A stretch of 64,000 bases of DNA from an uncultured Clostridia bacterium (GCA_947625645.1 CANQPE010000002.1:22981-86980), one strand, 5' to 3'. Numbered from the stretch's first letter, positions 12,047-46,399 are shown. The notes: a model not told the origin generated them from the sequence alone. A program made the numbers and translations.

Positions 12047-12060
12047 TAAGGAGGGGGAAT

Positions 12061-14710: not shown

Positions 14711-14739
14711 TTACAATCTTAGAAAGGAATGTCAGAAAG

Positions 14740-16140: not shown

Positions 16141-16151
16141 GGGAGAAAGTT

Positions 16152-17118: not shown

Positions 17119-17142
17119 AAGTAAAGAAAGGATGAAAGAAAA

Positions 17143-23331: not shown

Positions 23332-24300
23332 ATGAACGAAAAAAAGAATGAAATTGTTTTATTTGAAAATCAAGGAGTAAAATTAGAAGTAAATCTAAAA
23401 GATGAAACAGTATGGCTTAATTTAGAACAAATGGCTGAATTGTTTGGAAGAGATAAGTCTGTTATATCAAGGCATATAAAAAATGTGTTGAATGAAGAAT
23501 TACAAGACGAACAGGTTGTTGCAAAATTTGCAACAACCACTAAACATGGTGCTATTGAAGGGAAAACGCAAACACATTTGGTAGATTATTATAATCTTGA
23601 TATGATAATTTCTATCGGATATCGTGTAAAATCATCTAATGGTATTATTTTTAGAAAATGGGCAAACAAAATATTAAAAGACTATATGTTAAAAGGATAT
23701 GCTGTAAACCAAAAAAGACTAGAATATTTAGAGAAAACAATAAAAATAATAGACATTGCAAATAGAATAGATGAAAGATTAGAAGGAAATGATGCAAAAG
23801 AAATATTAAAAGTAATTGGAAATTATTCAAAAGCACTTGATTTATTAGATGACTATGATCACAGAACATTAAAGAAGATAGACGGAAATATAGATGAAAG
23901 AAAAATTGAGTATAAAGAATGTTTAGAAGTCATCAATAAATTAAGATTTAATGAAGAAAGTTCTTTATTTGCAGTAGAAAGAGATAAAGGATTGGAATCA
24001 ATTATAGGTAATATCTATCAGAGCTTTGCTGGACAAGACATCTATAAAAGTGTAGAAGAAAAAGGAGCAAATTTCTTGTATTTAATAGTAAAAAATCATG
24101 TATTTGCAGATGGTAATAAGAGAATTGCAGCTACATTATTTATATATTTTTTAAACTTTTATGGAATATTATATAAAAATGGAAAACATATAATTGATAA
24201 TAATACTCTAGCTGCACTTACTTTATTAATAGCAGAATCAAATCCAAAGGAAAAAGATGTAATCATAGACCTAGTAATGAATTTTTTGAATAACGAATAA
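23332..24300 (+). CDS. RhuM-family protein carrying a C-terminal Fic/Doc motif
   Basis: N-terminus LEQMAELFGRDKSVISRHIKNV...YNLDMIISIGYRV (RhuM-like); C-terminal HVFADGNKR matching HxFx(D/E)GN(G/K)R. Confidence 0.6.
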   Translation: MNEKKNEIVLFENQGVKLEVNLKDETVWLNLEQMAELFGRDKSVISRHIKNVLNEELQDEQVVAKFATTTKHGAIEGKTQTHLVDYYNLDMIISIGYRVKSSNGIIFRKWANKILKDYMLKGYAVNQKRLEYLEKTIKIIDIANRIDERLEGNDAKEILKVIGNYSKALDLLDDYDHRTLKKIDGNIDERKIEYKECLEVINKLRFNEESSLFAVERDKGLESIIGNIYQSFAGQDIYKSVEEKGANFLYLIVKNHVFADGNKRIAATLFIYFLNFYGILYKNGKHIIDNNTLAALTLLIAESNPKEKDVIIDLVMNFLNNE

Positions 24301-30348: not shown

Positions 30349-30360
30349 AAAAGTTCTCTC

Positions 30361-30425
30361 GGGACAGTTAGGGACGTATCTTTTTTGTCCATTAGGGACA
30401 AAAAAGATACGTCCCTAATTGTCCC
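30361..30425. repeat. Palindromic repeat element copy 5, short form
   Basis: gggacaGttaggg left arm pairs with a T on the right arm (G·U in RNA); otherwise perfect. Confidence 0.9.
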
Positions 30426-30590
30426 AAACAGACACTAATTTGTTCGAGAGTTCTTGTAAAAAATGTTTACAAAAAAATGCGGAAATGATAAAATAAAAAA
30501 AATAAAAATTTGCACGAAACAGAAAGTTTGAATCGTTTTATAAATGAAAGAGGAAAAAAGGCAATTAAAAGGGGAGGAATAGAAAGGAAA

Positions 30591-31076
30591 ATGGAAAACC
30601 AAAAAATAAAAGAATTAGTAGAAACATATTCAGATATGATTATGAAAATTGCCTATCAAAACAGCTTTAATAAATCAGATAGTGAAGACATTGTTCAAGA
30701 AGTTTTTTTGAAGTTGATGAAAAACATAAACAAATTAGGAGAGGACAACAATTATATAAAGGCATGGCTAATTAGAGTGACAATAAATTTAAGCAAAGAC
30801 TATAACAAAAGCGCTTGGTATAAAAAGGTAAGAGCTATTGAAGAAGATAATCAAGAATATGAGTTTAACTCAGAAGAACAAGATGTTTTAAAGGAACTGG
30901 CAAAATTAAAACCAGTGTACCGAAATACCATTTATTTATACTATTATGAAGGGTACAGGATACATGAAATTGCCAAAATCTTAAATCAAAATGAAAATAC
31001 AGTAAGTTCCAACTTGACAAGAGCAAGAAAACAATTAAAAGGCATCTTAGAAGAAGGAGGTGAGCTGTATGCCTAA
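30591..31076 (+). CDS. ECF-type sigma-70 family RNA polymerase sigma factor
   Basis: Region 2 (DIVQEVFLKL...AWL) and region 4 HTH (IHEIAKILNQNENTVSSNLTRARKQL); stop overlaps the downstream start (ATGCCTAA). Confidence 0.8.
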   Translation: MENQKIKELVETYSDMIMKIAYQNSFNKSDSEDIVQEVFLKLMKNINKLGEDNNYIKAWLIRVTINLSKDYNKSAWYKKVRAIEEDNQEYEFNSEEQDVLKELAKLKPVYRNTIYLYYYEGYRIHEIAKILNQNENTVSSNLTRARKQLKGILEEGGELYA

Positions 31077-33260: not shown

Positions 33261-33325
33261 GGGACAATTAGGGACGTATCTTTTTTGTCCGTTAGGGACA
33301 AAAAAGATACGTCCCTAATTGTCCC
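33261..33325. repeat. Palindromic repeat element copy 6, short form
   Basis: Perfect arms, loop gtta; lies between the paralog-2 stop and rsmB start. Confidence 0.9.
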
Positions 33326-33353
33326 TCGGCCAGAAAAAAAGGAGGAAGAAAAA

Positions 33354-34676
33354 GTGATTGATAAAGTCAGAGAAGTAGCACTGAAGGTGCTGTATAAAGT
33401 TGATAAGGAGAAAGCATTTTCTAATCTTGTGCTAAATCAGGAGATAAAAGATACGAAAAAAAATGGAGTGCAACTTACACCACGTGATGTGGGTCTCATT
33501 TCAGAGATTGTGTATGGCGTAACCAATTGGAGACTGACCATTGATCATATCATTGAAACATATGCAACAATCAAATTGAAAAAAATTTCGCCTTGGATTA
33601 TGAATATTTTAAGAATGGGAATTTATCAAATTGTATGGTTAGATAAAATTCCAAAATCTGCCGCAGTGAATGAAAGCGTTAATTTGGCAAAACGTTATGG
33701 TCATAGTGGCAGTGCTAGATTTGTCAATGCAATTTTACACAAAATAACAAAAGAGGATTATCATAAAATGACACAAATTGCAGATAATAAACAAAGAATT
33801 TCACTTATGTATGCAATGCCAATGTGGATAGTAGAACAATTACTAAAAGAAAGAAAAACAATAAAAGAAGTAGAAACCATTTGCCAAGAACTAACACAAA
33901 GACCAACGCTTACAATTAGAAGAAATCAATTAAAAATTCAAAAAAAGGAATTTGAAGAACAACTCACCAAGGCACAAATCATATTTGAAAATAGTACGAT
34001 TAATCCAGATTTTTATTACATAAAAAATATGAAACAAATAGAAGAATTGGAGTTATTCCAAAAAGGGTACATGACAGTGCAAGATGTATCTGCTGGACTA
34101 GCAGCATGGTATTTGGAACCAAAACCTGGGGAGACTATTTTAGATGCATGTAGTGCACCAGGCGGGAAAACAACCTATTTAGCAGAAATAATGGGAAACC
34201 AAGGAAAGATAGAAGCATGGGATATATACCCACACAGAACAAAATTAATTCAAGAAAATGCCAAAAGATTAGGAATTACAATCATACACACAAAAGAGCA
34301 AGATGCAAGCATATACCATCCAGAATATAACGAAGCATTTGATAAAATTTTATTAGATGTCCCTTGCATGGGAATTGGTGTTATCAAACGAAAACCAGAT
34401 ATTAAATGGCAAAAAAGACCAGAAGATATACCAGAAGTGACGAAACTACAAGAACAAATCATAACGGCATGTGCCAACTATCTAAAAAAGGGAGGGCAAT
34501 TGATTTATTCTACATGTAGCATATTGGAAGAAGAAAATCAAAAAGTAGTACAGAAATTTCTAAAAAAACACACAGAATTTTTTGCAGAAGAACTTGTTTC
34601 AGAACAAAAAATGTTACAAATTCTCCCAAAAAATGAACAAGATGGATTTTTTATAGCAAAATTGGTAAAAAAATAA
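33354..34676 (+). CDS. rsmB: 16S rRNA (cytosine-C5) methyltransferase RsmB/Sun with N-terminal NusB-like domain
   Basis: NusB-like N-terminus, SAM-binding DxCSAPGGKT, PCMG and TCS catalytic Cys motifs; GTG start after AGGAGG; the ORF-track start at 33285 runs through the repeat. Confidence 0.85.
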   Translation: MIDKVREVALKVLYKVDKEKAFSNLVLNQEIKDTKKNGVQLTPRDVGLISEIVYGVTNWRLTIDHIIETYATIKLKKISPWIMNILRMGIYQIVWLDKIPKSAAVNESVNLAKRYGHSGSARFVNAILHKITKEDYHKMTQIADNKQRISLMYAMPMWIVEQLLKERKTIKEVETICQELTQRPTLTIRRNQLKIQKKEFEEQLTKAQIIFENSTINPDFYYIKNMKQIEELELFQKGYMTVQDVSAGLAAWYLEPKPGETILDACSAPGGKTTYLAEIMGNQGKIEAWDIYPHRTKLIQENAKRLGITIIHTKEQDASIYHPEYNEAFDKILLDVPCMGIGVIKRKPDIKWQKRPEDIPEVTKLQEQIITACANYLKKGGQLIYSTCSILEEENQKVVQKFLKKHTEFFAEELVSEQKMLQILPKNEQDGFFIAKLVKK

Positions 34677-34851: not shown

Positions 34852-36624
34852 ATGGTAAGTTGTTTAGGATTATATATTGAAAACAATTTAATTAAATATG
34901 CTAAAGTTTCAAAGGACAAAGAAGGTAAGAAAATAGAAGCATATGGAGTAAAATTCTACGATAGAATTGAAGAAGGAATTCGACAAATTGTAGAAGAAAC
35001 TTATAGCTACAAAATTCCAATTTGTATCAATCTAACAGAAGAAATGTATCAGTATTTTGATATGTTCTCTTTATTAAGTAAAAATGACTTAGACAAAGCA
35101 GTGGAAATGGAATTTGAAGCATATTGTTCAGACAATGGTTTCAATGCAAGTGTATTTGAAACCCGTTATGCTGTGGTAGAAGGATTACAAGATGCAGAAA
35201 AACTAAAAGTCATTTTTGTCAGCGATAACAGATTAGAATTGAATAAAAGAATGCAACTTTTTGAAAAATATAGACTAACAGGGGTATACCCACTATCTAT
35301 TGCATTACCAACAATTTCTAAGCAAGTCGCACAGCAAAACTCTATTATTGTTAATATTGAAGAACACACAACAATTACAACAATTATCAATAAAAAAGTT
35401 TTTGATGTGAAAGTACTAGACCAAGGAAGTACAGATTTCTTAGATCGAATTAATCTAAAAGAAAATTCATATGCAAAAGCATACGAGGTTTGCAAAGAAA
35501 CAACGATATATACTTCAGAAGGAAAAGAATTAACAGAAAAAGAAGCTGGCTATCTAGAACTTATTATGCCTGTGTTATACCCAATTGTTGGACAAGTACA
35601 AAAAACAATGAATGAAAGTATGGAAAAAATTGAAAATGTTTATATAACAGGTACAGCAGCTTTGATTAATAACATAGATTTATATTTTCAAGAATATCTA
35701 GAAAATGCAAAATGCGAAATTTTAAAACCAGACTTTGTGGCAAGAAATGCAGATATTAATATTAAAGATTATATTGAAGTCAATTCCGCTATTGCAATTG
35801 CCTTAATGGGAATTGGAGAAGGTATTAGCGGAATGAACTTCAAGAAAAATACAGTAAATGATAAATTAAAAGACTTTTTTAAGTTAGAATTTGGCGCACA
35901 ACAAGGAGGAAGACTAATATCAAACGACTTAAAACAACCTCTGGACAGAACCGAAAAAAGCTTATTAAATGTATTGGCAGGCTTTTTCATCTTATTTGTT
36001 GTGTATACTGCATTTTCTCTGATGTTAAAACAAAGCTTTGCATACAAAGGCGCGCAGGCAGATGAATCTATTAAAAATTCAAACAAACAAATTTCATTGG
36101 TAGAACAAGATGACAGTGCCATTAAAGAAGTAAAAAATGATTATACTACCAGAATTGAAAATATACGAGAACTTAATAATCGAATTAATGAACGCAACCA
36201 ATCAAGAGGCGCATTACCAGGACTATTAAATCAATTAATGAACGTTATTCCAGATGAAGTAAAAATCAACTCAATTGAAACAGAAGTACACTTAGACGGA
36301 AAACCACTTACAACGGAAACAGACACAAACAAGATGACAGGAACAGATGAAACAACAACTAAAACAAGCGAAGCACAATCAGAAGATACAACAGCCACAG
36401 GAAATACAGCAGTAGCACAAGATACAACAACAGCTTCTACCACAGACACAACAGGTGTTAAAACAAATCACGTTGTTATTGAAGTGGAATCTGCAAAATA
36501 TGAACAAATTGCATTCTTAATAGGAAGCATTAAAACAGACGTAATTTTAACAAATGTCATTTCTACTTCAGGACAAAAAGAAAGCAATGTAATAAAAGTA
36601 ACGATAGAAGGTGATCTACCATGA
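34852..36624 (+). CDS. Type IV pilus assembly PilM-PilN fusion protein with a Thr-rich C-terminal region
   Basis: Actin-like ATPase fold N-terminal half, TM LLNVLAGFFILFVVYTAFSLML, coiled coil, T/E/D-rich low-complexity stretch. Confidence 0.55.
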   Translation: MVSCLGLYIENNLIKYAKVSKDKEGKKIEAYGVKFYDRIEEGIRQIVEETYSYKIPICINLTEEMYQYFDMFSLLSKNDLDKAVEMEFEAYCSDNGFNASVFETRYAVVEGLQDAEKLKVIFVSDNRLELNKRMQLFEKYRLTGVYPLSIALPTISKQVAQQNSIIVNIEEHTTITTIINKKVFDVKVLDQGSTDFLDRINLKENSYAKAYEVCKETTIYTSEGKELTEKEAGYLELIMPVLYPIVGQVQKTMNESMEKIENVYITGTAALINNIDLYFQEYLENAKCEILKPDFVARNADINIKDYIEVNSAIAIALMGIGEGISGMNFKKNTVNDKLKDFFKLEFGAQQGGRLISNDLKQPLDRTEKSLLNVLAGFFILFVVYTAFSLMLKQSFAYKGAQADESIKNSNKQISLVEQDDSAIKEVKNDYTTRIENIRELNNRINERNQSRGALPGLLNQLMNVIPDEVKINSIETEVHLDGKPLTTETDTNKMTGTDETTTKTSEAQSEDTTATGNTAVAQDTTTASTTDTTGVKTNHVVIEVESAKYEQIAFLIGSIKTDVILTNVISTSGQKESNVIKVTIEGDLP

Positions 36625-37382
36625 AAAAAATATTAATTTTACTATCCATCATTTTGCTGTGCGTGCTAACAGTGTTTACGGTGCTAAAAGGAATTCATAT
36701 TGGAGATTTTTCTATCTTGGGTATTTATGAAATTCAAGATGAAGATGCAAAATTGGATAAAAAGGTGAAACAAGCAACTAAACTTGCAAGTACAGATTAT
36801 AAAAATCAAATGCTTTCCATTGAACAAGATGTGAAAGACATGCAAGAAGAAAAACAAAAATATGAAGATGAAGTAGCTGCTAGTACAGAAAGCGAATTTG
36901 CAGCAGTGGTACAAAAGCAAAAATATTCTATAGACAAATTATGGACCAAAATTGGAACATTAGCCACAGACGAAGGACTAGATGCAAAATTTGTATATAA
37001 AAAAGGAACTTTACAAGCAGCACCTTCAGAACAAAAGGAATTTAACTATTATACAATTGAATTTGAAGTAACAGGAAGCTATATTGGTGTTTCATTATAT
37101 ATTTCAGACCTAGAAGACGACTCAGAATTAGGCTTTAAAATAGAAGATTTTAAAATGAAACCAGAAGGAAATGGAGACACCGTAAAAGCAACCTTTACTG
37201 TAAAAGACATTGCTATCATGGGACTTGTAGATATTGCAGAAGAAGAGCCAGAAGAAGAAGAAAGCAATACGACGAACACAACAGAAGAGAAAAAATCTAT
37301 TATCAATGCAATTAATACAACCGTAGATGACGTAACAGCAGAAAATACAGCAAATGTGACTAGAAATTCTACTAGTCAATAG
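36621..37382 (+). CDS. PilO-like pilus assembly protein (N-terminal TM, coiled coil, periplasmic domain, acidic/Thr-rich tail)
   Basis: Topology and position after pilM/N. Confidence 0.4.
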   Translation: MKKILILLSIILLCVLTVFTVLKGIHIGDFSILGIYEIQDEDAKLDKKVKQATKLASTDYKNQMLSIEQDVKDMQEEKQKYEDEVAASTESEFAAVVQKQKYSIDKLWTKIGTLATDEGLDAKFVYKKGTLQAAPSEQKEFNYYTIEFEVTGSYIGVSLYISDLEDDSELGFKIEDFKMKPEGNGDTVKATFTVKDIAIMGLVDIAEEEPEEEESNTTNTTEEKKSIINAINTTVDDVTAENTANVTRNSTSQ

Positions 37383-37396
37383 AAAAGGAGTATCTT

Positions 37397-37882
37397 ATGA
37401 CAAAAGGCGTTTTTAAAGAAATAATTATAATTTTATTATTAATTCTTGCAGTCATATTGTTACTAACGGTTTTACTATACGATTATGTACCTTTAAACAA
37501 GGTCATTCCAGAAAAAGTAACGTACACTGCAACAGAAGAAATTAAGTCAGCGCTTGAAGAAAAAAAGGTAAGCGATGAGGACACAGTTGTACTAACATAT
37601 GAAGTAACGTCAACAGATTTAAAGAATTACCAAAGAGTAAATGAATATAAAGCAGGTAGAAAAAATCCATTTGGAACTGTTGTAACCGAAACACCAACGG
37701 ATGAAAATACAGGAACACAAAATAACAGCGGAACTACAACAGGAACAACAGGAGGAACTTCTTCAAGTGCAACAAGTGGAACCACGGGAACTACCACAAG
37801 TGGCAGTGCTGGAAATAATAGCAGTACAGGAACGAGCAGCTCAACTAGTACACACTATTACCCAGACAAGGGAACAAAATAA
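37397..37882 (+). CDS. Membrane-anchored hypothetical protein with Thr/Gly/Ser-rich C-terminal half (pilus-associated?)
   Basis: MTKG-VFKEIIIILLLILAVILLL N-terminus; T/G/S low-complexity tail. Confidence 0.35.
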   Translation: MTKGVFKEIIIILLLILAVILLLTVLLYDYVPLNKVIPEKVTYTATEEIKSALEEKKVSDEDTVVLTYEVTSTDLKNYQRVNEYKAGRKNPFGTVVTETPTDENTGTQNNSGTTTGTTGGTSSSATSGTTGTTTSGSAGNNSSTGTSSSTSTHYYPDKGTK

Positions 37883-38026
37883 TTTCGTTATTATTATTAT
37901 ACTTGATTACAAGTATGGAAATGATAAACATTCAAAAGAAAAGGGGGATAGACAAAAGAAATATCGTTTGATAACGACCAATGTGAGAAAAACACAGGAA
38001 GAAATTAAAATTTAGGAGGTAAAAAA

Positions 38027-38632
38027 ATGAAAAAGAATCAAAAAGGTATTACACTAGTAGCCTTAGTAATTACAATCATTGTATTATTAATTCTTGCAGG
38101 TGTAACAATTGCATCACTAGCAGGTGAAAACGGATTATTAACAAGGAGTTCAAAGGCAGTTAATGCTAATACAACAGGAACGAAAAAAGAACAAGTAGTA
38201 TTATCCTACGACACAGCATCAGGAGCATATTATGATGCAAAATACGTAGACAATTCTGTAACCAATATTGCTCCAAATGGAACAATTACAAAAATAGAAC
38301 CTACGGCATATATTGTTAAGCAATTATTAAAAGATGCCGATTTTACAGAGGTAGCAGGTATCTATGACAGTGACGAGACAAATGCTAAAGAGTATGTTAT
38401 TAAAGATGCTTCTGGAAAAGTTAATGGAAAAGACTTTGACGGCACCTCACAAGAGGAAGTTCCAGACAATTTAACATCAGCTTGGATTCGTTTAAAAGGT
38501 TCTGTAAGACGCGATGCAAATGAAAACGAATATACTGGTAAAAATGGATTAATTCAAGTTCAAATTAAAAATCAAGGGAATGCTTCTATGCTAGCTAAAC
38601 CTTGGTCAGATGAAAAACCATTACCAGAATAA
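38027..38632 (+). CDS. Type IV (pseudo)pilin-like protein, copy 1
   Basis: Class III signal MKKNQKG|ITLVALVITIIVLLILAGV (positive leader, G at -1, hydrophobic helix) but Ala rather than Glu at +5; RBS TTAGGAGGTAAAAAAATG. Confidence 0.55.
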   Translation: MKKNQKGITLVALVITIIVLLILAGVTIASLAGENGLLTRSSKAVNANTTGTKKEQVVLSYDTASGAYYDAKYVDNSVTNIAPNGTITKIEPTAYIVKQLLKDADFTEVAGIYDSDETNAKEYVIKDASGKVNGKDFDGTSQEEVPDNLTSAWIRLKGSVRRDANENEYTGKNGLIQVQIKNQGNASMLAKPWSDEKPLPE

Positions 38633-38673
38633 GATGCACTAGCAGATAAAAACAAATATTAGGAGGTAAAAAA

Positions 38674-39273
38674 ATGAAAAAGAATCAAAAAGGTATTACA
38701 CTAGTAGCACTAGTCATTACGATTATTGTATTATTAATCCTTGCGGGTGTAACAATAGCATCTTTAGCAGGTGAAAACGGATTATTAACCAGAAGCTCAA
38801 AGGCGGTTAATGCTAACACAACAGGAACGAAAAAAGAACAAGTAGTATTATCCTATGACACAGCATCAGGTGCTTACTATGATGCAAAATATGTAGACAA
38901 CTCTGTCACAAACATTGATCCAGATGGAACCATTACTAAGATTGAACCAACTGCATATATTATTAAACAATTATTGGCTGATAATGACTTCATGGAGGTA
39001 GCTGGTGTTTATGATGGACCAAAAACTACATCAAAAGAATATGTAAAAGATTCAGCTGGTGAAAATCAAGTTAAACTAACAGATGACATTAAAGAAGCTT
39101 GGATTCGATTAAGAGGTTCTGTACAACGTGATGCAAATGAAAATGAAAAAACAGGACAAGCAGGATTAATTCAAATTAAAATTAAAAACCAAGGAAATGC
39201 TTCTATGTTAGCTAAACCTTGGTCAGATGAGACAGGATTTGAATATGAAGCAAGTGAAAAAGAATCAACATAG
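38674..39273 (+). CDS. Type IV (pseudo)pilin-like protein, copy 2 (tandem paralog)
   Basis: First ~85 aa and last ~40 aa nearly identical to copy 1, centre divergent; identical RBS. Confidence 0.55.
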   Translation: MKKNQKGITLVALVITIIVLLILAGVTIASLAGENGLLTRSSKAVNANTTGTKKEQVVLSYDTASGAYYDAKYVDNSVTNIDPDGTITKIEPTAYIIKQLLADNDFMEVAGVYDGPKTTSKEYVKDSAGENQVKLTDDIKEAWIRLRGSVQRDANENEKTGQAGLIQIKIKNQGNASMLAKPWSDETGFEYEASEKEST

Positions 39274-39366
39274 TAAATAATATTTTAAAGTAAACGACAA
39301 ACTTTAGGCATATACACACATATGTATATGCCTAAAAGTTTAAAAAAAGGGGAAACGGAACAAAAA

Positions 39367-40170
39367 ATGGAATACCTATTTTATTTATTTATTTTTATCA
39401 TTGGTATTGTATTTGGCAGTTTCTATACGTTAGCTGTATACCGCATACCAAAAAAAGAAGATATTTTACATACACATTCCTATTGCCCAGAATGTCAGCA
39501 TAAACTAGGGTTTTTGGATTTAATCCCTTTGTTTAGTTATGCCTTTTTACGTGGCAAATGTCGCTATTGTGGCAAAAAGATTCGTCCCCGTTATTTTATT
39601 ATCGAATTTATTTCAGGGTGTTTTTTTGTGGCACTTGCGTACCTAATGAAATTTAATGTGGAAAATCTAACGGCGATAAAAGCAATAGACTTCTCTTTTA
39701 TGGTACTATATTTCACATATATTATTTTAATGGCAGGAATTGATAAAGAAAATAGGCAGATTCAAAAAGGTGTTAATATTTATGGAATTGCAATATCGAT
39801 TGGATATATGATATATCTATACATAATAGAAGAACCTAGTATTTATAGATATGGTATATATTTAATGTTTAGCATTGTTTGTTTAGGACTTGACAGCATT
39901 ACATTCCGAAAATATGCAAAACACACATACATATATGGACTCATTATCACTACAATTATTATGGCAATTTTTACAGGTGAATTTGTCATGTATGAAACAG
40001 TTCTTACGGTATTATTAGCAATTGCAATCTATGTAGCCATCAAAAAAATACAAAATAAAAGGAAGAAAGATAAAGAACCTGTATTTCAAAAAATGCAAAT
40101 TGGCTATATGCTAGGAATTGCAAACATTGCATTTTTCTTATTTGTTATGTTTTGCCAACGTACTTTCTAA
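39367..40170 (+). CDS. pilD: Prepilin peptidase (A24 family, PilD-like) with N-terminal Cys4 zinc motif
   Basis: CPECQHKL...GKCRYCGKKI, polytopic A24 peptidase domain. Confidence 0.8.
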   Translation: MEYLFYLFIFIIGIVFGSFYTLAVYRIPKKEDILHTHSYCPECQHKLGFLDLIPLFSYAFLRGKCRYCGKKIRPRYFIIEFISGCFFVALAYLMKFNVENLTAIKAIDFSFMVLYFTYIILMAGIDKENRQIQKGVNIYGIAISIGYMIYLYIIEEPSIYRYGIYLMFSIVCLGLDSITFRKYAKHTYIYGLIITTIIMAIFTGEFVMYETVLTVLLAIAIYVAIKKIQNKRKKDKEPVFQKMQIGYMLGIANIAFFLFVMFCQRTF

Positions 40171-40190
40171 GCAAGGAGGAAAATAGAAGA

Positions 40191-40643
40191 ATGAAACAAA
40201 AACTCAAGTGTGAAAAAGGAATTACCAATGCAGATATCGTCATTGCAGTTATTCTTGTTACGCTATTTATTGGATTATTGGCAACAATGACCAATATGAT
40301 TCAAAGAGATGCAAAAAAAACACAACGTGAAGAACAAGCAATGAGTTATGCAATTGAATTGATAGAATTGGCAAAATCACAAGACTTTAGTGTATATCCA
40401 AAACTAGGTAGCCAAAAAATACAAGATGTAGAAGAATTGCAAGATGGTTATATCGTAGATAAGAATCATAATACTCCTACACCATTTTATAAGACGATTA
40501 CCGTTCAAGATATTTCAGAATTTTCTGCCCATATTGATAAACAACCAGAAATCATGAAAAAAATTACGGTAACCATATCGTATCAGCAAGATAATGAAGA
40601 AAAAAATGTGACATTAACTACCTATGTCACCAAGGAGGGCTAG
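40191..40643 (+). CDS. Minor pilin-like protein
   Basis: MKQKLKCEKG|ITNADIVIAVILVTLFIGLL class III-like signal; AAGGAGG RBS. Confidence 0.5.
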   Translation: MKQKLKCEKGITNADIVIAVILVTLFIGLLATMTNMIQRDAKKTQREEQAMSYAIELIELAKSQDFSVYPKLGSQKIQDVEELQDGYIVDKNHNTPTPFYKTITVQDISEFSAHIDKQPEIMKKITVTISYQQDNEEKNVTLTTYVTKEG

Positions 40644-40644
40644 C

Positions 40645-41100
40645 ATGAAAAGTGAAAGAGGTGTTACAACAACAACTGTTATTGTATATGTCATTATTTT
40701 AACAGTCGTGATTTCCATGATGTCAGTGATAACCGGTTTTTTTAGAAGTGGCATACGCAAGAGTTTGCAAAAAAATATCAGCGCAGACCGTTACATTACA
40801 TTTGCTAGTTATTTTATCCAAGATATTCAGCAAAAAGGAAATGAAGTGTTAGCGGCAGAAGAAGTTAAAGATACAGACGGGAACCGCGTTTGTTATATCC
40901 AATTTTCAAATGGTAATTTGTATCAATTTTCTGAAGCAAACAAAGAGATTTATTTAAACCAAATAACAATTTGTGAAGATGTGGATTATTGTCGTTTTGT
41001 GCATATCACACCAAAAGAGGGAAAAGAAAAAGTGGAAGTACATTTTGCAGCAGGTGATTTCGAAAGATTAAATGAAAACCCTGTGGTTTTCTATATGTAA
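40645..41100 (+). CDS. Minor pilin-like protein
   Basis: MKSERG|VTTTTVIVYVIILTVVISMM class III-like signal; AAGGAGGG RBS. Confidence 0.5.
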   Translation: MKSERGVTTTTVIVYVIILTVVISMMSVITGFFRSGIRKSLQKNISADRYITFASYFIQDIQQKGNEVLAAEEVKDTDGNRVCYIQFSNGNLYQFSEANKEIYLNQITICEDVDYCRFVHITPKEGKEKVEVHFAAGDFERLNENPVVFYM

Positions 41101-41196
41101 TTTTTGGAAACATGCGAAAAAGCTACAAAAATAAATTAAAATGTAGTATAATATAGTAGAGGATAAATTCCTGCCACAAAAGAAAGGAGAAAAAAT

Positions 41197-42840
41197 ATGG
41201 ATATTCGTAGAAAACAACCAATGGGAGTAGAATTAGTAAAAAAGGGGATTGTGAAAGAAAGTGACATAGAAAGGGCTTTGCAATTCCAAAGGGAACATCC
41301 AAGTATGAAGATTGGAGACATTTTATATGCATTAGATGTATGTGAACCGACAGTATTAATTAATGCAATTGCAGACATTGTAGGAGCAAAAGGTATTTTA
41401 TTAACCAATAATTTAATTAAAATCAACATAGAGGATTATTTGCCAAAAGATGTAGCGAAAAACAACAAAGCCATTCCATTTGATGTTTCAGATGGAAAGA
41501 TAAAGGTATGTTTTCCAAACAATATTGAAATGAAAAAAATGGAAAATATTCGTCGTTTAATGCTAAATAGAGGGTTAATTTTAGACCCATATGTTACCTT
41601 TTCACAACAAATTGATAAAATTTTGGCCTCATTAGATGGCAATGTGAGTGAAGAAATTACGAAATCTGGAAACAGTGATAGTACATCCATTACAGAGTTG
41701 GTTGATAATATTATTACAACAGGAATTGAAAGACGTGCCAGTGATATACATATTGAGCCATTACAAGATGAAGTAAGGGTTCGTTACCGTGTAGATGGTG
41801 AGCTATATGTTGCAGCAACCATTAAGAAAAATAAGCAACAACAATTAATTGGAAGATTAAAAGCCATTTCCAATATGCATCAAGAAAAACAAGAGTCACA
41901 AGATGGTAGAATTACAACGTATGAAAATTATAATATTCGTGTATCTTCACAACCTAATATTTATGGTGAAAAATTTGTGTTAAGGTTATTGAAGAAGAAT
42001 ACGGACATTCGTAGTATTTTTGAATTAGGGTACCCAGGGGACGACGAAAGTGTTCGTAAGAGCTTTAACAAGAAAAATAGTATTACCATTATTGCAGCAC
42101 CAACAGGAGAAGGTAAAACAACAACATTGTACAGTATTATCGATTTTCTAAATCGACCAGAAATTAATATTACAACCATAGAAGACCCAGTAGAAATTCG
42201 TATTAGAGGATTAAACCAAATTGAAATCGGACCAAAAGCAACATTTTCAAATTCATTAAGAACGGTTTTAAGACAAGACCCAGACGTCGTATTGGTAGGA
42301 GAAATCCGTGACATTGAAACAGCAGAAATTGCAGTGCAAGCAGGTCAAACAGGACACTATGTGCTTTCAACCATTCACACCATTGACAGTATTGAAGTTA
42401 TTAACCGTTTAAGAAAAATGGGAGTTTCAGACTATGACATTGGAAGTATTTTAGCAACATGTGTATCAGAAAGATTAATCAGAAGAGTTTGTCCACATTG
42501 CAAAAGAGAAAGAGAATTTTCAGCACAAGAAAAAGAAATTATGACAAAATTAATGGAACGCTATGGCGAGACCATCAATTTTGAAGGGAAAAAGACGTAT
42601 GATGCAGTTGGTTGTGACTATTGCAACAATACAGGTTTCTATGAAAGAATTGGTATTTTTGAAATTCTAGATATTACAGATGATATTCGAGAACTAATTG
42701 TCAATGGCGCTTCTAACTTGGAAATTCGTAGAAAAGCATTAGCATTAGGTTACCGTCCACTTGTTGTAGATGGTGTTCGTAAAGTGTTAGATGGTGTTAC
42801 CACATTAGATGAGTTAAATAATAAATTACTATTATATTAA
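41197..42840 (+). CDS. pilB: Type IV pilus assembly ATPase PilB (GspE family)
   Basis: T2SSE N-domain, Walker A AAPTGEGKTTT, Asp/His boxes, CxxC...CxxC tetracysteine motif. Confidence 0.85.
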   Translation: MDIRRKQPMGVELVKKGIVKESDIERALQFQREHPSMKIGDILYALDVCEPTVLINAIADIVGAKGILLTNNLIKINIEDYLPKDVAKNNKAIPFDVSDGKIKVCFPNNIEMKKMENIRRLMLNRGLILDPYVTFSQQIDKILASLDGNVSEEITKSGNSDSTSITELVDNIITTGIERRASDIHIEPLQDEVRVRYRVDGELYVAATIKKNKQQQLIGRLKAISNMHQEKQESQDGRITTYENYNIRVSSQPNIYGEKFVLRLLKKNTDIRSIFELGYPGDDESVRKSFNKKNSITIIAAPTGEGKTTTLYSIIDFLNRPEINITTIEDPVEIRIRGLNQIEIGPKATFSNSLRTVLRQDPDVVLVGEIRDIETAEIAVQAGQTGHYVLSTIHTIDSIEVINRLRKMGVSDYDIGSILATCVSERLIRRVCPHCKREREFSAQEKEIMTKLMERYGETINFEGKKTYDAVGCDYCNNTGFYERIGIFEILDITDDIRELIVNGASNLEIRRKALALGYRPLVVDGVRKVLDGVTTLDELNNKLLLY

Positions 42841-42862
42841 ACAAAAGAAAGGGTTGAAATAT

Positions 42863-43963
42863 ATGATAAACATGGAAAAAATATTAGACCAAGTGATTGC
42901 AAGAGATGCTTCAGATGTGCACTTGGTTGCAGGAAATAAACCATTACTTAGAATTGCTAGAGAATTACTTCCCATAGAGGAAGAATCAGTTTTAACACCA
43001 GATGATATGAACGAAATCTACGATTATTTAGTAAGAGGAAATCTAGATAAAGATACCGTATTCCACGACACAAGAAAGCTAGATACTTCTTGCGAATATG
43101 CAGGAGTCCGTTTTAGGGTGAATATATCTAACGCATTTGACGTACCTGTATGTACATTAAGGTTAATCAAAAATGAGTTACCATCGTTTGAGGAGTTAGG
43201 TGTTCCAGATGTGGTTAGAAGAATGACAATGCAACCACAAGGATTAATGTTGGTAACTGGTAAGACAAACTCTGGTAAAACAACAACATTAAATGCACTT
43301 ATTAATGATATTAATGAAACGCAAAACCGCAAAATATTAACACTTGAGAACCCAGTAGAATTTAGGCATCATTCTAAAAGGTCTTTAATTGTCCAAAAAG
43401 AAGTAGGAAAAGGGCAAGACTCTTTAACCTTTAGTGATGGTGTTAAAAATGCCCTAAGAGAAGACTGCGACATTTTGGTTATCGGAGAGGTTAGAGACAA
43501 AGTTACGATGGAAGCTGCAATTGAAATGGCAGAGTCAGGACACTTGGTAATTGGAACTTTACATACAAAATCTTGTGCAGAAACCATAGACAGAATGATT
43601 AACTTCTATGAAGTGCGTGACCAAGCAAGTATTAAATACCTATTATCGGCTTTATTAAAGCTTGTTGTATCACAAAGGTTACTTCGTGGAAGAGATGGAA
43701 AATTAGTGTTAATTCCTGAAGTCATGGTGGTAGATAACATTGTGGCAGGTATTATTCGAAAAGAAAAAATCAGTGTTTCAGAAATTGAAGATGCCATACA
43801 AAGTAATTTAGATAAAGGTAGTGTCGGTCTCATTAATTCATTGGCACAGGCTTTTGTGGATGATAAAATTACTTTGGAACAAGCAAAATCACAATTAGAG
43901 GATAAAAATATAGAAGTATTAAACAGAACGATTATGCAATTAAAAATTAAAAGAGGGAAATAA
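42863..43963 (+). CDS. pilT: Twitching-motility retraction ATPase PilT
   Basis: Walker A TGKTNSGKTTT, PilT size ~365 aa, GTLHT motif. Confidence 0.85.
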   Translation: MINMEKILDQVIARDASDVHLVAGNKPLLRIARELLPIEEESVLTPDDMNEIYDYLVRGNLDKDTVFHDTRKLDTSCEYAGVRFRVNISNAFDVPVCTLRLIKNELPSFEELGVPDVVRRMTMQPQGLMLVTGKTNSGKTTTLNALINDINETQNRKILTLENPVEFRHHSKRSLIVQKEVGKGQDSLTFSDGVKNALREDCDILVIGEVRDKVTMEAAIEMAESGHLVIGTLHTKSCAETIDRMINFYEVRDQASIKYLLSALLKLVVSQRLLRGRDGKLVLIPEVMVVDNIVAGIIRKEKISVSEIEDAIQSNLDKGSVGLINSLAQAFVDDKITLEQAKSQLEDKNIEVLNRTIMQLKIKRGK

Positions 43964-44012
43964 GAAAGGAGCAGATGTCAGCTGGGTTTGAGCTAACATC
44001 TAACTAGGAACT

Positions 44013-45353
44013 ATGGCCGTATATATATATAAAGCAATGACAAAGTCAGGGTTAATTGTTAGAAATAGAGTAGAAGCACCGACAAAAGGTACATTAATTA
44101 ATATGTTGAAAAACAATGAATTAATGCCAATTAGCATAGATAAGATGCCTTATGGAAAAAAGAAGCCACGTGTAAAACAGAAGAAAAATATAGAAGAAAG
44201 AGAATATCTTAAAAACTTAAATACAACCAGTATTGAAACAACGAATAGATTTTCTATGAGGGAAAAAATTACAATGTACCTAGCCCAATCCAAAAGGATT
44301 ACACCTAGGGACTTGGTGGTATTTACGCAAAATTTCTATTTGCTAAAAAAAGCAAACTTCAATAATATTCATGCTTTGAGGACGATTTTAGACAGTACAG
44401 AAAACTACATTTTCAAGCAAATTATAGAAGATATTTTGGCTGGTGTGGAAGCTGGGGAAAACATGTATACAACAATGGAATATTATGAAGATGTGTTTCC
44501 TTATATCTATATCAACATGATTAAAGTAGGAGAGTTGTCTGGGTCTTTAACAAACTCATTGGAGCAAGCCGTAAAATATTTAGACGATAACAACGCAATG
44601 AATAAAAAGTTAAGGAATATTTTAATTCCAAATTTGATTCAGTTTATTTTATTGATTGTGATGTTAGTGGTTGGTACACTTGTTGCCATACCAGCAATTC
44701 AAGGCGTTTATGAAGAATTGGGAACCAAAGATACTTTACCAGCAATTACATTATGGTTCCAAGGCGTTATGAATGTTGCCATCAAATTTTGGTACATACC
44801 TGTTATCGTTTTGGTGGGAATTGCAGCAGCAATTATTACATATATAAGTACACCAAAAGGTCACTATAACTTTGATTACTTGAAATATAAAATGCCTGTT
44901 TTTGGAGAATTGATTTTTGCGATTGATTTTTCAAGATTGATGAAGGCCATGCTGTTAAACTTACAAAATGGTATGCGTATTCAAGAAGCACTAGAAGTAA
45001 GTAAAAACGTTGTGAAAAACCGTGTTATGCGTTCTATTATAGATGTATCTTCTAACAACATATTAATTGGATCTTCTTGGATAGAACCATTCGAAAAATC
45101 AGGGCTATGTAAGCCAATGATAACCGAAATGTTGAAAATCGGTATGAGAACAGACTTAACCGAAATGATGGAAAAATTAGTAGAATATATGCAAATTGAT
45201 ATTGATGACATTATGACCAAGGTTATGAAAGCATTACCACAAATTGTGTATGCAATTGTAGGAGTTGTGTTAATCTTCTTCGTTATTGTTGTACTTGTAC
45301 CTTGCGTTCAAGTATATATGGGTAACTTCTTGTTCTCCGCTTACCTTGAGTAG
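44013..45353 (+). CDS. pilC: Type IV pilus inner-membrane platform protein PilC (GspF family)
   Basis: Two GspF-like repeats, three TM segments. Confidence 0.8.
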   Translation: MAVYIYKAMTKSGLIVRNRVEAPTKGTLINMLKNNELMPISIDKMPYGKKKPRVKQKKNIEEREYLKNLNTTSIETTNRFSMREKITMYLAQSKRITPRDLVVFTQNFYLLKKANFNNIHALRTILDSTENYIFKQIIEDILAGVEAGENMYTTMEYYEDVFPYIYINMIKVGELSGSLTNSLEQAVKYLDDNNAMNKKLRNILIPNLIQFILLIVMLVVGTLVAIPAIQGVYEELGTKDTLPAITLWFQGVMNVAIKFWYIPVIVLVGIAAAIITYISTPKGHYNFDYLKYKMPVFGELIFAIDFSRLMKAMLLNLQNGMRIQEALEVSKNVVKNRVMRSIIDVSSNNILIGSSWIEPFEKSGLCKPMITEMLKIGMRTDLTEMMEKLVEYMQIDIDDIMTKVMKALPQIVYAIVGVVLIFFVIVVLVPCVQVYMGNFLFSAYLE

Positions 45354-45359
45354 TGTCTT

Positions 45360-45457
45360 GGGACAATTAGGGACGTTTCTTTTTTGTCCCTCAGGAACAA
45401 TTGGGGACAGACCTTTGGAGCATGGGGGACAAAAAAGAAACGTCCCTAATTGTCCCC
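45360..45457. repeat. Palindromic repeat element copy 7, long form (cgtttc arm variant, 35-nt internal insert)
   Basis: gggacaattagggacgtttcttttttgtccc ... gggacaaaaaagaaacgtccctaattgtccc; the insert contains a half-site-like ggaacaattgggga. Confidence 0.85.
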
Positions 45458-45475
45458 GAAAAGAAAGGAAGAAAT

Positions 45476-46399
45476 ATGAAGGAAGAGAAAAAGGCTACGC
45501 GCCAAAGCTATGGAGAGGCGTTAGTAGATTTGGGAAAACAAAATCCGAATATTGTTGTATTAGATGCAGATTTAGCAAGTGCCACAAAAACAGAATTGTT
45601 TGCCAAGGCATATCCTGACCGTTTTTTTGATATGGGAATTGCGGAAGCAGATATGATGTCAACCGCTGCAGGAATGGCCACTTGTGGCAAAATTCCATAT
45701 GCAAGTACATTTGCTATGTTTGCCGCAGGAAGGGCATATGACCAAATACGAAATAGTATTTGTTACCCAGAATTACCAGTTAAAATTTGTGCAACCCATG
45801 CAGGAATTACCGTAGGGGAAGATGGAGCAACCCATCAAATGATAGAAGACCTATCTTTAATGCGTACATTACCCAATATGACAGTTTTGTCAGTAAGTGA
45901 TGATGTACAAACAAAGTGGGCTGTAAAGGAAATAGCAAATTTACAAGGTCCAGTATATTTACGTTTATCTCGATTAGCAACCAATGTGCTATATGAAGAA
46001 AATCAAGTATTTGAAATTGGAAAAGCTGTGCAATGGGGCAATGGAACAGACGGTACCATTTTTAGTACAGGTGTGACAGTGGCCGAAAGTCTAAAGGCAC
46101 AAGAGCAGTTAGAACAAAAAGGAATCCATGTCAGAGTGGTAGATATGCATACCATAAAGCCAATTGATAAAGATATGATTATTAAGGCGGCAAAAGAAAC
46201 AAAACGCCTTGTTTCTGTAGAAGACCATAATGTGATAGGAGGTTTAGGTAGTGCAATAGCAGAAGTTTTAACAGAATATGAACCCAAACATTTTATTCGA
46301 TTGGGTATTCCAGATACCTTTGGAAAATCTGGAAAAGCAGTGGAATTGATGAAATTTTTTGGCATCACAGCAGATAATATTATGAAGCAGTGGAGCTAG
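45476..46399 (+). CDS. Transketolase C-terminal subunit (pyrimidine-binding and C-terminal domains), orphan
   Basis: IAEADMMSTAAGMATCGKIPYASTFAMFAAGRAYDQIRNSI; no N-terminal TPP-binding subunit gene adjacent; the ORF-track start at 45401 runs through the repeat. Confidence 0.8.
   Translation: MKEEKKATRQSYGEALVDLGKQNPNIVVLDADLASATKTELFAKAYPDRFFDMGIAEADMMSTAAGMATCGKIPYASTFAMFAAGRAYDQIRNSICYPELPVKICATHAGITVGEDGATHQMIEDLSLMRTLPNMTVLSVSDDVQTKWAVKEIANLQGPVYLRLSRLATNVLYEENQVFEIGKAVQWGNGTDGTIFSTGVTVAESLKAQEQLEQKGIHVRVVDMHTIKPIDKDMIIKAAKETKRLVSVEDHNVIGGLGSAIAEVLTEYEPKHFIRLGIPDTFGKSGKAVELMKFFGITADNIMKQWS

Follow-up and report, generated by a model that had tools for sequence, protein, structure and literature searches.

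The canonical type IV pilin motif is numbered G/F1-T2-L3-I4-E5, the slash here and below marking the cleavage site, and in canonical assembly Glu5 forms a salt bridge to the N-terminus. Glu5 mutants of studied bacteria fail to homopolymerize; co-assembly of such mutants with wild-type subunits is on record for other species (PMC4471445). The nearest described machines are the monoderm type IVa pili of Clostridioides difficile, Clostridium perfringens and Streptococcus sanguinis, which, like the locus described here, have PilB, PilT, PilC, a PilD-type protein, genes in the PilM/N/O positions and several pilins. Short leaders are likewise common to both. S. sanguinis also has tandem major pilin genes, PilE1/PilE2, and its PilB is described as a modular pilin with a bulky C-terminal domain (PMC8179133, PMC10628169). 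All subunits of these pili but the tip pilin carry Glu5 (PMC10628169). Tip-capping minor pilins (the GspK/PilK class and S. sanguinis PilA) naturally lack it (PMC10628169, PMC10191384), but they are single low-abundance caps, whereas our locus has amplified subunits at the major position and belongs with a whole paralogous family without Glu5.

Class III signals without Glu5 are frequent in archaeal type IV pilins, archaellins and the Sulfolobus bindosome, and there one such signal is placed on many different surface proteins (PMC4471445). A Tad-type pilus cluster is reported to be conserved in TANB77 (Kim et al. 2024, PMC11680825), an order that likewise consists of uncultured gut Clostridia of low GC, labelled Clostridium sp. 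or uncultured Clostridia at NCBI, and its pilin-like proteins were missed by annotation tools, as were those of our locus. That cluster consists of CpaB, TadZ, CpaE, TadA, TadBC and pilin-like genes, whereas ours is a PilB/PilT/PilC locus.

The stretch of DNA that we analyzed (the window, 64,000 nucleotides) comes from a lineage of uncultured, low-GC, spore-forming gut Clostridia. On its plus strand, 34852 to 45353 code for PilB, PilT and PilC, for a PilD-like protein, and for four further proteins that carry class III signals (Table 1). An earlier, sequence-only reading had described a full type IV pilus locus whose pilins lack Glu at +5. Indeed, all ORFs and signal sequences it quoted were found exactly in place, the residues at +5 are Ala, Ala, Asp and Thr (ORFs 38027, 38674, 40152-40643 and 40624-41100), and Pfam and NCBIfam back PilB, PilT and PilC of a type IVa-like locus. 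Its judgement that candidate major subunits without Glu5 are very unusual in bacteria agrees with the literature (Berry & Pelicic 2015, PMC4471445; Pelicic 2023, PMC10191384). It had, however, slipped in numbering by placing Thr instead of Phe at +2: Thr+2 is normal, and what has truly changed is that Ile replaces Phe at +1 and Ala replaces Glu at +5.

Table 1. Features of the pilus locus, in window coordinates
Feature	Coordinates	Strand	Remarks
PilM/N-like fusion	34852..36624	+	cytoplasmic domain of ~345 aa, one membrane helix, external domain; label by position only; 34852 likely true start
PilO-like bitopic membrane protein	36621..37382	+	label by position only
161-aa bitopic membrane protein, conserved, non-pilin	37397..37882	+	Thr/Ser/Gly-rich tail
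Ala5 pilin 1, candidate major subunit	38027..38632	+	prepilin MKKNQKG/ITLVALVITIIVLLILAGVTIASLAGENG
Ala5 pilin 2, tandem paralogue of pilin 1	38674..39273	+	79% identity
Palindromic hairpin	39303..39337	.	16-bp stem; lies after the tandem pilins and before the PilD-like gene
PilD-like protein	39367..40170	+	Cys4 zinc-finger (methylase-type) N-domain and divergent membrane domain without GxGD; 39367 likely true start (M16, nearly invariant in homologues)
Minor pilin, conserved Asp+5	40191..40643	+	CEKG/ITNAD; start probably ~40191, from homologue alignment
Minor pilin, Ser/Thr+5, candidate tip cap	40645..41100	+	SERG/VTTTT; start probably ~40645, from homologue alignment
PilB extension ATPase	41197..42840	+	MshEN-like N-terminus, T2SSE match
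PilT retraction ATPase	42854..43963	+	TIGR01420 pilT_fam
PilC platform protein	44013..45353	+	GspF and PilC models

Compared with monoderm type IVa pili, the window has Ala5 candidate major pilins and Asp5 and Ser/Thr5 minor pilins in place of Glu5 subunits, a PilD homologue without GxGD or PF01478, and PilM/N/O-position proteins without a profile match. It differs from the archaeal systems in its bacterial PilB, PilT and PilC, its invariant Gly-1 and its bacterial Cys4 methylase-type domain, and profile searches of the window returned no archaeal FlaK/PibD-type domain and no FlaI/FlaJ-type genes. The gene order, one to five tandem Ala5 pilins followed by the PilD-like gene, the minor pilins and PilB, recurs with the same +5 residues in other genomes, at 17 more syntenic loci, so the pattern is not a product of chance. 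In all of these loci, as in the window, the pilins are flanked by the PilM/N/O-position genes and by PilD-like/PilB/PilT/PilC. Counting the window, 16 of 18 locus maps show the Asp5 minor pilin and 13 of 18 the Ser/Thr5 one.

PilB, PilT and PilC are divergent members of their families, since none of their scores reaches the equivalog cut-off, the shortfall ranging from slight to considerable. PilB matches T2SSE at 1.5e-98, and its best family, TIGR02538, at 4e-120, below the cut-off of that model; its matches to MshEN and the c-di-GMP motif are weak. PilT aligns over its full length with TIGR01420 (1.5e-93, 313.8 bits against a cut-off of 319.1), and PilC matches GspF at 3.5e-50 and PilC models at 4e-40. 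The names PilM/N fusion and PilO-like, which we keep from the sequence-only reading, reflect position and topology, neither protein having a match among Pfam, NCBIfam or PDB profiles. The PilM/N-like gene comes first in the syntenic loci and its product always starts M.SCLGLYIE; its hhalign alignment with a provisional Thermus PilM sequence was collinear and non-significant (probability 0.1). Homologues of the PilO-like protein occur in 21 related loci, in the same position wherever the locus is complete.

Both tandem pilins start with a short hydrophilic leader ending in Gly-1, MKKNQKG/ITLVA, with Ala at +5, and continue for 26 uncharged residues, ITLVALVITIIVLLILAGVTIASLAG. Type IV pilins are recognized by about 21 mainly hydrophobic residues after the cleavage site (alpha1N), and both proteins have such a segment. 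They score 20.8 and 20.9 bits with N_methyl PF07963, against a gathering cut-off of 21.2, and do not match TIGR02532 at E<=0.1; the best PDB profile matches of the Ala5 pilins are pilin N-termini, those of MshA and geopilin. In the pilin fold a beta-sheet head packs against a long N-terminal helix. An AF2 model of pilin 1 (pLDDT 90.7) predicts a helix at 6-32, a break at 33-36, a second helix at 37-75 and then a beta domain, and a Foldseek search found none like the head domain among solved pilins. A perfect AGGAGG Shine-Dalgarno site precedes each gene. The first 81 amino acids of the two pilins are identical, and the 24 differences in the corresponding first 243 nucleotides are all synonymous, with none non-synonymous. 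Furthermore, small pilins of 130-200 aa occur up to five times in tandem at the major-pilin position of the locus maps. Where the genes lie, their amplification in tandem, their perfect Shine-Dalgarno sites and the purifying selection on them all favor the Ala5 proteins as the major subunit. The hairpin that follows the tandem genes has no clear T-run after its stem on the plus strand, and a terminator or attenuator role for it is only a guess.

Absence of Glu5 is a trait of the lineage, whose large Ala5 pilin family has a small neutral residue in its place, Ala in almost every case. The N-terminus KG/ITL[IV]ALVITIIVLLILAG is nearly invariant across more than 7,000 database proteins. Among 78 diverse members of the Ala5 family, Gly-1 and 15 more N-terminal positions are invariant, and all 113 of 113 motif ORFs have Ala at +5. 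In a scan of ~1.9 Mb, covering parts of the genomes of related uncultured gut Clostridia, we counted 132 Ala5 members, with Val, Thr, Gly and Ile variants being rare, and no match to the canonical pilin pattern G/[FILV]T[LT][ILV]E. About two thirds of the sampled family genes lie outside pilus loci, and many of these orphan genes code for proteins of 300-950 aa with adhesin-type domains, including fn3, BspA-type LRR with Flg_new, GLUG, RCC1 and dockerin-like domains. The sequence-only reading had allowed that Ala+5 pilins would be ordinary if they were common in relatives and shown to assemble; they are very common there, but we found no paper showing assembly, nor any on the Ala5 pilin family.

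The two minor pilins also end their leaders in Gly-1, as judged by homologue alignment. The first has Asp at +5 in 15 of 15 aligned homologues besides the copy in the window, and a motif scan likewise gave 16 Asp5 copies with the window included; its similarity to ComGE is weak (E 0.013). In the second, +5 is Ser or Thr in 16 of 16 aligned homologues, and by analogy it may be the equivalent of the tip-capping pilins. The PilFind rule, [GAS]-x4-[DE], calls for an acidic +5, Glu or rarely Asp (PMC3244431). It accommodates the Asp+5 minor pilin only, and neither the Ala+5 tandem pilins nor the Thr/Ser+5 minor pilin.

Our preferred reading, which we hold to be probable, is that the locus makes a type IVa-like pilus that can retract and whose assembly, like that of archaeal pilins, does not need Glu5. 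The machine would consist of PilB, PilT, PilC and a PilM/N/O-like membrane complex, with major subunits drawn from the large lineage-specific family in which Glu5 gave way to a small neutral residue. As in other pilin systems, prepilins would enter the membrane with the short basic leader left in the cytoplasm, and an A24 aspartic peptidase would cut after the invariant Gly-1. The two minor pilins could then prime assembly; more speculatively, the Ser/Thr5 protein would be the cap, with the Asp5 protein beneath it neutralizing the N-terminus of the cap. By analogy with archaeal type IV pilins, the Ala5 subunits would polymerize by purely hydrophobic packing of their 26-residue uncharged alpha1N, without a salt bridge between Glu5 and the N-terminus. 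A shared packing interface fits the data because alpha1N is near-invariant over thousands of otherwise unrelated paralogues. Orphan genes would place the same N-terminal module on large adhesin-type proteins, which probably act as modular pilins that this machine either co-assembles or displays. Against this reading stand the failure of Glu5 mutants to homopolymerize in studied bacteria (PMC4471445), N_methyl scores just under the cut-off with no TIGR02532 match, the lack of a solved pilin like the head domain, and PilM/N/O-position proteins without a profile match.

The bifunctional PilD (A24A) has two universally conserved catalytic Asp residues, the second inside a GxGD motif. The protein that the sequence-only reading took for a standard PilD keeps the Cys4 domain (PF06750, 1.2e-30), and C55, C58, C80 and C83 are invariant. 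However, it has no GxGD motif and no match to Peptidase_A24 (PF01478; IPR000045) even at E<=10, and all 120 of its closest homologues have PF06750 (IPR010627) only and never PF01478. When we aligned it by hhalign with a provisional P. aeruginosa PilD sequence, D141 fell on the first catalytic Asp and the alignment ended right past it. Elsewhere in the lineage, but not in the 64-kb window, there is a stand-alone A24 protein of ~250 aa with PF01478 only and canonical IDxxxxxIPN and GxGDxK motifs. It is present in MAG UBA3678, which also has a syntenic pilus locus, and its genes share metagenome contigs with Ala5 genes. Its PF01478-only architecture resembles that of TadV/CpaA-type prepilin peptidases (A24 without the methylase domain), but its length of ~250 aa and its housekeeping context (YqeG-like HAD, A24, PepQ, in 35 of 36 long loci), outside any tad or pilus cluster, set it apart. 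Either this enzyme or the derived PilD-like protein of the locus could cut the prepilins. In characterized PilD, the Cys4 methylase-type domain acts on the freshly cut N-terminus (PMC10191384); in our PilD-like protein this domain is strictly conserved and the peptidase signature has decayed, and we infer with moderate confidence that the role of the protein is most likely to methylate N-termini or to handle substrates, and not to cleave them.

The strongest competing view, below even in our estimate but to be taken seriously, is that the PilD-like protein is a working prepilin peptidase, with D141 and D191 forming a non-GxGD site that co-evolved with the Ala5 substrates, and that the stand-alone A24 enzyme serves another system, for instance Tad or Com. 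In the close clade (n=120 homologues), D141 is conserved in 100% and D191, in the motif LLLD[TN]ITLKK, in 95%, both at predicted cytoplasmic helix ends. In every locus the gene is flanked by its presumed substrates, its C-terminal IGFYLG..N motif resembles PFGPYLA of PilD, and the Tad-type cluster of TANB77 Clostridia lacks a peptidase of its own (PMC11680825). The missing PF01478 match and the alignment that stops after the first Asp argue against activity, and so does the wider GxGD-less family: of its 70 cluster representatives, 48 have the first-site Asp, against 26 of 26 GxGD relatives, and only 16 have Asp at the second site, which is often Asn; 66 of the 70 still carry the Cys4 motif. 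Some relatives retain the Cys4 domain with the whole membrane domain swapped for a different one.

Rather unlikely, in our view, is a short pseudopilus, or a device for display or secretion comparable to the archaeal bindosome or a type II secretion system. The Ala5 signal would then serve mainly to export and anchor many surface proteins and would not mark the subunit of a long pilus. The orphan majority of the sampled family, with its many long adhesin-type proteins, speaks for such a device, the bindosome has class III signals on sugar-binding proteins (PMC4471445), and one report links a second clostridial pilus gene set to secretion. But the locus has a PilT retraction ATPase and small pilins amplified at the major-pilin position, and modular pilins of S. 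sanguinis are known to co-assemble into true pili (PMC8179133).

It is improbable that the Ala5 proteins are accessory or minor and that a canonical Glu5 major pilin is encoded elsewhere in the genome. Our view of this genome spans 64 kb and related genomes were sampled in part, and the co-assembly of Glu5 mutants with wild-type subunits (PMC4471445) would suit such an arrangement; however, the ~1.9 Mb of related sequence held no canonical Glu5 pilin, and the Ala5 genes are the ones amplified at the major-pilin position behind strong ribosome-binding sites. The idea that the conserved N-terminus is an uncleaved signal-anchor, found in pilus loci incidentally, would fit the degenerate peptidase signature of the adjacent PilD-like protein and make Glu5 unnecessary, there being no free N-terminal charge without cleavage, but it is very hard to reconcile with an invariant Gly-1 behind a short basic leader, the matches to N_methyl (just below cut-off) and to pilin N-termini, strict synteny with PilB/PilT/PilC in 17 further loci, the canonical A24 peptidase of the lineage, and a strictly conserved Cys4 domain of the kind that acts on cut N-termini (PMC10191384).

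Beyond the preferred reading of a Glu5-independent retractile pilus, we tentatively consider, as a possibility more doubtful than not, that the lineage rebuilt its type IV filaments through three connected changes, losing the Glu5 bridge, splitting the bifunctional PilD and using Ala5 as a general tag. If so, PilD would be divided into a methylase-type protein with a pseudo-enzyme peptidase half and an A24 peptidase of its own in a housekeeping setting. With the invariant Ala5 class III signal, each genome would bring several adhesin-like surface proteins to a single retractile machine, much as archaea use their class III signals.

The 161-aa protein encoded upstream of the tandem pilins had been proposed, as an alternative, to be the real major pilin, with MTKG/VFKEI as its signal. 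Across 20 homologues the supposed -1 position holds N, T, S, I or G (MAKN.., MAKT.., MNKT..), and since no Gly-1 cleavage site is conserved, the protein is not the major pilin. Its homologues accompany 21 related loci.

In bacteria, a glutamate at position 5 after the cleavage site (Glu5) "almost invariably" interrupts the hydrophobic stretch of pilins, and in archaea it is often absent (PMC4471445). Glu5 is essential for homopolymer assembly, although its role is incompletely understood (PMC4471445, PMC10628169, PMC10191384); Glu5 mutants are processed, yet they do not homopolymerize (PMC4471445). The tip subunit alone lacks Glu5 in known systems, so that usual bacterial pili carry it in all subunits but the tip cap (PMC10628169, PMC10191384). 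The pattern appears inverted in the lineage described here. In comparison with the canonical G/FTLIE, the two tandem pilins of the locus have Ile in place of Phe at +1, and at +5 the Glu is replaced by Ala. The sequence-only reading had quoted all of the pilin signals exactly, and its claim that the candidate major subunits lack Glu5 proved robust across genomes. It had misnumbered one change as Thr replacing Phe at +2, where Thr is in fact the normal residue.

The pilus genes are flanked by rsmB (33285-34676) on one side and by a gene for transketolase (45401-46399) on the other, and the 11 ORFs in between share one strand. Their sequence matches support the PilB, PilT, and PilC assignments well. 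PDB sequence and profile searches with the PilM/N-position protein gave no useful match. An hhalign comparison of a PilM/N alignment with a Thermus PilM sequence was collinear and nonsignificant, and we dropped it as evidence for PilM identity.

Genes of the pilus locus, in order (a slash marks the predicted cleavage site)
Feature	Length	Position in the window	Strand	Signal; residue at +5	Remarks
PilM/N-position protein	590-608 aa	34852-36624	+		First ORF of locus
253-aa protein	253 aa		+		Second ORF of locus
161-aa protein	161 aa		+		Third ORF of locus
Pilin 1	201 aa	38027-38632	+	MKKNQKG/ITLVA; Ala	Tandem with pilin 2
Pilin 2	199 aa	38674-39273	+	MKKNQKG/ITLVA; Ala	Tandem with pilin 1
PilD-like	267-282 aa	39367-40170	+		
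Minor pilin 1	About 140-150 aa	40152-40643	+	CEKG/ITNAD; Asp	
Minor pilin 2	About 140-150 aa	40624-41100	+	SERG/VTTTT; Thr	
PilB		41197-42840	+		T2SSE 1.5e-98; best family TIGR02538
PilT		42854-43963	+		TIGR01420 full length, 313.8 bits (cutoff, 319.1)
PilC		44013-45353	+		GspF/PilC model matches

With pilin 1 as the query, we obtained at least 7,162 database proteins at E ≤ 0.001; the search scored at most 8,000 candidates. In the best 120 of the 7,162, a short basic leader precedes G-[IV]-T-L-[IV]-A-L-V-I-T-I-I-V-L-L-I-L-A-G, with a single Val+5 exception. Alignment of 78 diverse members, with an overall identity of just 31 to 48%, revealed 16 invariant N-terminal positions, including Gly-1, Thr+2, Leu+3, and a G-x-N-G motif directly after the hydrophobic stretch. 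When one genome per species was scanned, more than 600 pattern matches were returned. All 80 loci kept from these belong to metagenome-assembled genomes (MAGs) of uncultured gut Clostridia from human, rabbit, chicken, and rumen samples, with labels such as Clostridium sp. CAG:440, Clostridium sp. 27_14, Clostridiales bacterium UBA3678, and UMGS1673, and every one of their 113 motif ORFs has Ala+5. Ala+5 is a family trait rather than an accident. The source databases put no name on any pilin match listed or PilD-like protein looked up; a few JGI entries among the PilD-like homologues are named "leader peptidase (prepilin peptidase)/N-methyltransferase." Truncated copies of the Ala5 family are found in three metagenome loci (L115 17278, L140 17273, and L153 17356), in which ..GITLIALVVTIIVLLILA is followed by about 20 codons and then a stop. 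These are probably frameshifted pseudogenes and point to turnover in the family.

Pilin 1 and pilin 2 each have an AGGAGG ribosome-binding site 7 nt from the ATG. Their first 81 residues are identical, and the 24 differences among the corresponding 243 nt (38027-38269 and 38674-38916) are all synonymous; by this comparison, the segment is under purifying selection. Recent gene conversion was rejected as the cause of the identity, since 24 nucleotide differences have accumulated with zero amino acid changes. The C-terminal halves are divergent, with a 10-residue indel. The Pfam N_methyl model scored the pilin at 20.8 bits, just below its cutoff of 21.2, and TIGR02532 gave no match to the Ala5 pilins. 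The family profile matched solely pilin N termini in the PDB, those of MshA and geopilin, and did so weakly. An AlphaFold2 model of the pilin (pLDDT 90.7) has a helix at residues 6 to 32, a break at GENG (33 to 36), a second helix at 37 to 75, and then a beta domain, for which Foldseek returned no solved relative. In canonical pilins, a flexible segment is supplied by Gly14/Pro22, and the conserved G-x-N-G break may, by analogy, be its counterpart. Taken together, these sequence features are evidence that the Ala5 genes encode real, expressed subunits and candidate majors. Separately, residues 44 to 125 (38156-38401) in the family profile weakly match PDB "S-layer protein" chains 8bt9 and 7qfl (E of 0.04 to 0.07), centered on a conserved YYDAKYVD motif, and this match may be due to chance.

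Syntenic pilus loci make up about 25 of 82 loci. One order, of 1 to 5 tandem Ala5 pilins, PilD-like, minor pilins, and PilB, is shared by the window and 17 other mapped loci. Of these 18 maps, 16 include an Asp5 minor pilin and 13 a Ser/Thr5 one, and the residue at +5 is kept in all aligned homologues, as Asp in minor pilin 1 (15/15) and as Ser or Thr in minor pilin 2 (16/16). The 161-aa protein, which the sequence-only reading had offered as the real major pilin, is conserved as well. Its supposed -1 residue is N, T, S, I, or G; since Gly-1 is not conserved, we rejected it as a hidden major pilin and prepilin peptidase substrate.

The locus peptidase had been taken for a standard PilD. Its Cys4 N-domain is clear (PF06750, 1.2e-30), but Peptidase_A24 (PF01478) gave no match even at an E of ≤10, and the sequence has no GxGD motif. 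PF01478 is also absent from its 120 closest homologues, and PDB sequence and profile searches gave no useful match. Thus, the Glu5-less pilus locus of the earlier interpretation stands, and its alternative major pilin and its standard PilD do not. Both catalytic Asp residues are considered universal among prepilin peptidases (PMC10191384). An hhalign alignment of the PilD-like protein with a Pseudomonas aeruginosa PilD sequence covered the N-domain as well as the first catalytic Asp and then stopped. We treat this alignment, which pairs that Asp with D141 in the motif GIDKE, as a lead and not a reference. For the second Asp there is a single candidate, D191, within LLLD[TN]ITLKKYAK; this position is Asp in 95% of close-clade members and Ser in the others.

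The GxGD-less PilD group proved broad in a profile search against 1.84 billion cluster representatives. The Cys4 motif is kept in 66 of 70 full-length GxGD-less representatives and in all 26 GxGD neighbors. Asp occupies the first site in 48 of the 70 and, again, in all 26; at the D191 column it is found in 16 of the 70, with Asn and Glu common, a column that does not apply to the GxGD neighbors, whose second Asp lies within GxGD. This pattern suggests relaxed selection on catalysis, with the methylase-type domain still constrained. A comparison of N-domain and C-domain conservation in GxGD and GxGD-less relatives gave ratios of 0.49 and 0.41, which are nondiscriminating. In ten PilD relatives (P0337, P0343, P0346, P0347, P0353, P0356, P0358, P0359, P0368, and P0380), the Cys4 A24_N_bact domain is kept, the peptidase domain is entirely missing, and the C-terminal half is an unrelated nonmembrane (soluble) sequence, e.g., ..GSNIMKNKM..VTYMYNG...

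The lineage has a separate, canonical Peptidase_A24. A 252-aa protein of MAG UBA3678 (locus L012, 7535-8290) carries the motifs IDYKLQIIPN and GLGDVKL; PF01478 is its sole match, and the Cys4 domain is absent. The same MAG holds a syntenic pilus locus (L077), in which an Ala5 pilin accompanies a GxGD-less PilD-like protein that shares 51% identity with the one in the window. Homologues of the stand-alone enzyme (59 to 100% identical) are present on 77 gut and rumen metagenome contigs (L083-L159), with the gene between those for a YqeG-like HAD phosphatase and PepQ in 35 of 36 long loci. Pilus motor genes were never beside it in the metagenome loci examined, Ala5 family genes lie ≤10 kb away on about ten of the 77 contigs, and the 64-kb window has no stand-alone A24 gene.

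Our picture of a Glu5-less pilus system, which is drawn entirely from sequence inference, starts with cleavage of the prepilins at the invariant Gly-1, probably by the stand-alone A24 enzyme. The cut could be made by the PilD-like protein of the locus instead. Both D141 and D191 are conserved in the window's own subclade, so catalytic activity is possible there; however, the missing PF01478 match and GxGD motif count against this role, and we consider it plausible but somewhat improbable. With cleavage assigned to the stand-alone enzyme, the PilD-like protein would methylate or present the new N terminus. We found no description of methylase-only PilD relatives in the literature. We know of none, and the PilD-like protein would be the first if confirmed; such relatives could then help explain the purpose of pilin N-methylation. 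The two minor pilins would prime assembly, and the Ala5 subunits would polymerize by hydrophobic packing of their invariant, uncharged 26-residue helix, a step modeled on those archaeal pilins that lack Glu5 (PMC4471445).

About two thirds of the sampled Ala5 family genes lie outside pilus loci, and single MAGs contribute at least three separate loci even within the top 80 matches. Half of the motif ORFs exceed 310 aa, and the longest reaches 953 aa. Behind the Ala5 N-terminal module are fn3, BspA-type LRR with Listeria-Bacteroides repeats, GLUG, RCC1, and dockerin-like domains. These large members recall the modular pilins of Streptococcus sanguinis and the way in which archaea attach class III signals to numerous surface proteins (PMC4471445). 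Many of the unnamed family proteins are probably pilus-borne adhesins, and the large orphans would be carried by the same filament or machine. That this machine builds a short pseudopilus or a display device rather than a long pilus seems to us unlikely. Less likely still is a canonical major pilin encoded elsewhere in the genome: in about 1.9 Mb of related DNA, a motif scan found 132 Ala5 members, 16 Asp5 and about 16 Ser/Thr5 proteins, which are the minor pilins, and a small number of family variants in which +5 is Val, Thr, Gly, or Ile, but no canonical Glu5 pilin. An uncleaved signal-anchor is very hard to reconcile with a Gly-1 that is invariant across the 78 diverse members.

In the literature, we found no description of a bacterial PilB/PilT/PilC system whose major pilins naturally lack Glu5, and nothing relevant for the Ala5 motif string. 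A pilus paper on TANB77, a possibly related lineage, describes a Tad-type cluster (PMC11680825), unlike the PilB/PilT/PilC locus of the window. A conserved PilB/PilT/PilC system with Glu5-less majors would, if true, be a natural test of the role of Glu5, with relevance to pilus biology and to the annotation of gut metagenomes. The PilFind rule demands [DE] at +5 (PMC3244431) and would miss the Ala5 pilins, as TIGR02532 does and Pfam narrowly does; for these reasons, thousands of gut metagenome proteins are left unnamed. There may also be a clinical link, since the lineage resembles TANB77 gut Clostridia, whose pilin-like proteins have been tied to immunotherapy response.

The rest of the window is ordinary chromosome, with RNase J, GltX, a polysaccharide cluster, SerS, SpoVA, an ECF sigma factor, FtsEX, PcsB-like peptidases, PrkC, and HolA. 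This gene content and a GC of about 32% indicate a low-GC, spore-forming member of Clostridia. A phage origin of the system was rejected, since there were only 5 weak loci among 2.9 million viral contigs. A promoter scan was uninformative in this AT-rich DNA, with no more sites than in shuffled sequence. A palindromic hairpin with a 16-bp stem (39303-39337) lies between the end of pilin 2 and the likely true PilD-like start (39367), with no clear T-run 3' of the stem; it may be a transcriptional attenuator parting high pilin expression from the machinery genes. The PilB N terminus (41197-41650) has a weak MshEN match, and the MshE-type c-di-GMP-binding motif scores 28.4 bits against a cutoff of 38, which hints at c-di-GMP regulation of pilus extension. 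An ECF-type sigma factor (30510-31076) lies a short way upstream of rsmB and the pilus locus, with a large protein on either side of it (699 and 729 aa; 28249-33249), each with a DUF4179 anti-sigma-like N terminus; the pair is missing from the equivalent place in a sister MAG (L001). The surface polysaccharide cluster (7116-18444) encodes LytR-CpsA-Psr, a priming sugar transferase, three GT2 glycosyltransferases, a Wzx-type flippase, an epimerase, and UDP-glucose dehydrogenase, and within it, at 12 to 16 kb, GC dips to 0.245-0.27. Amid housekeeping genes, a RhuM-family/Fic-domain protein (23332-24300) may be the remnant of a mobile or toxin-type element.
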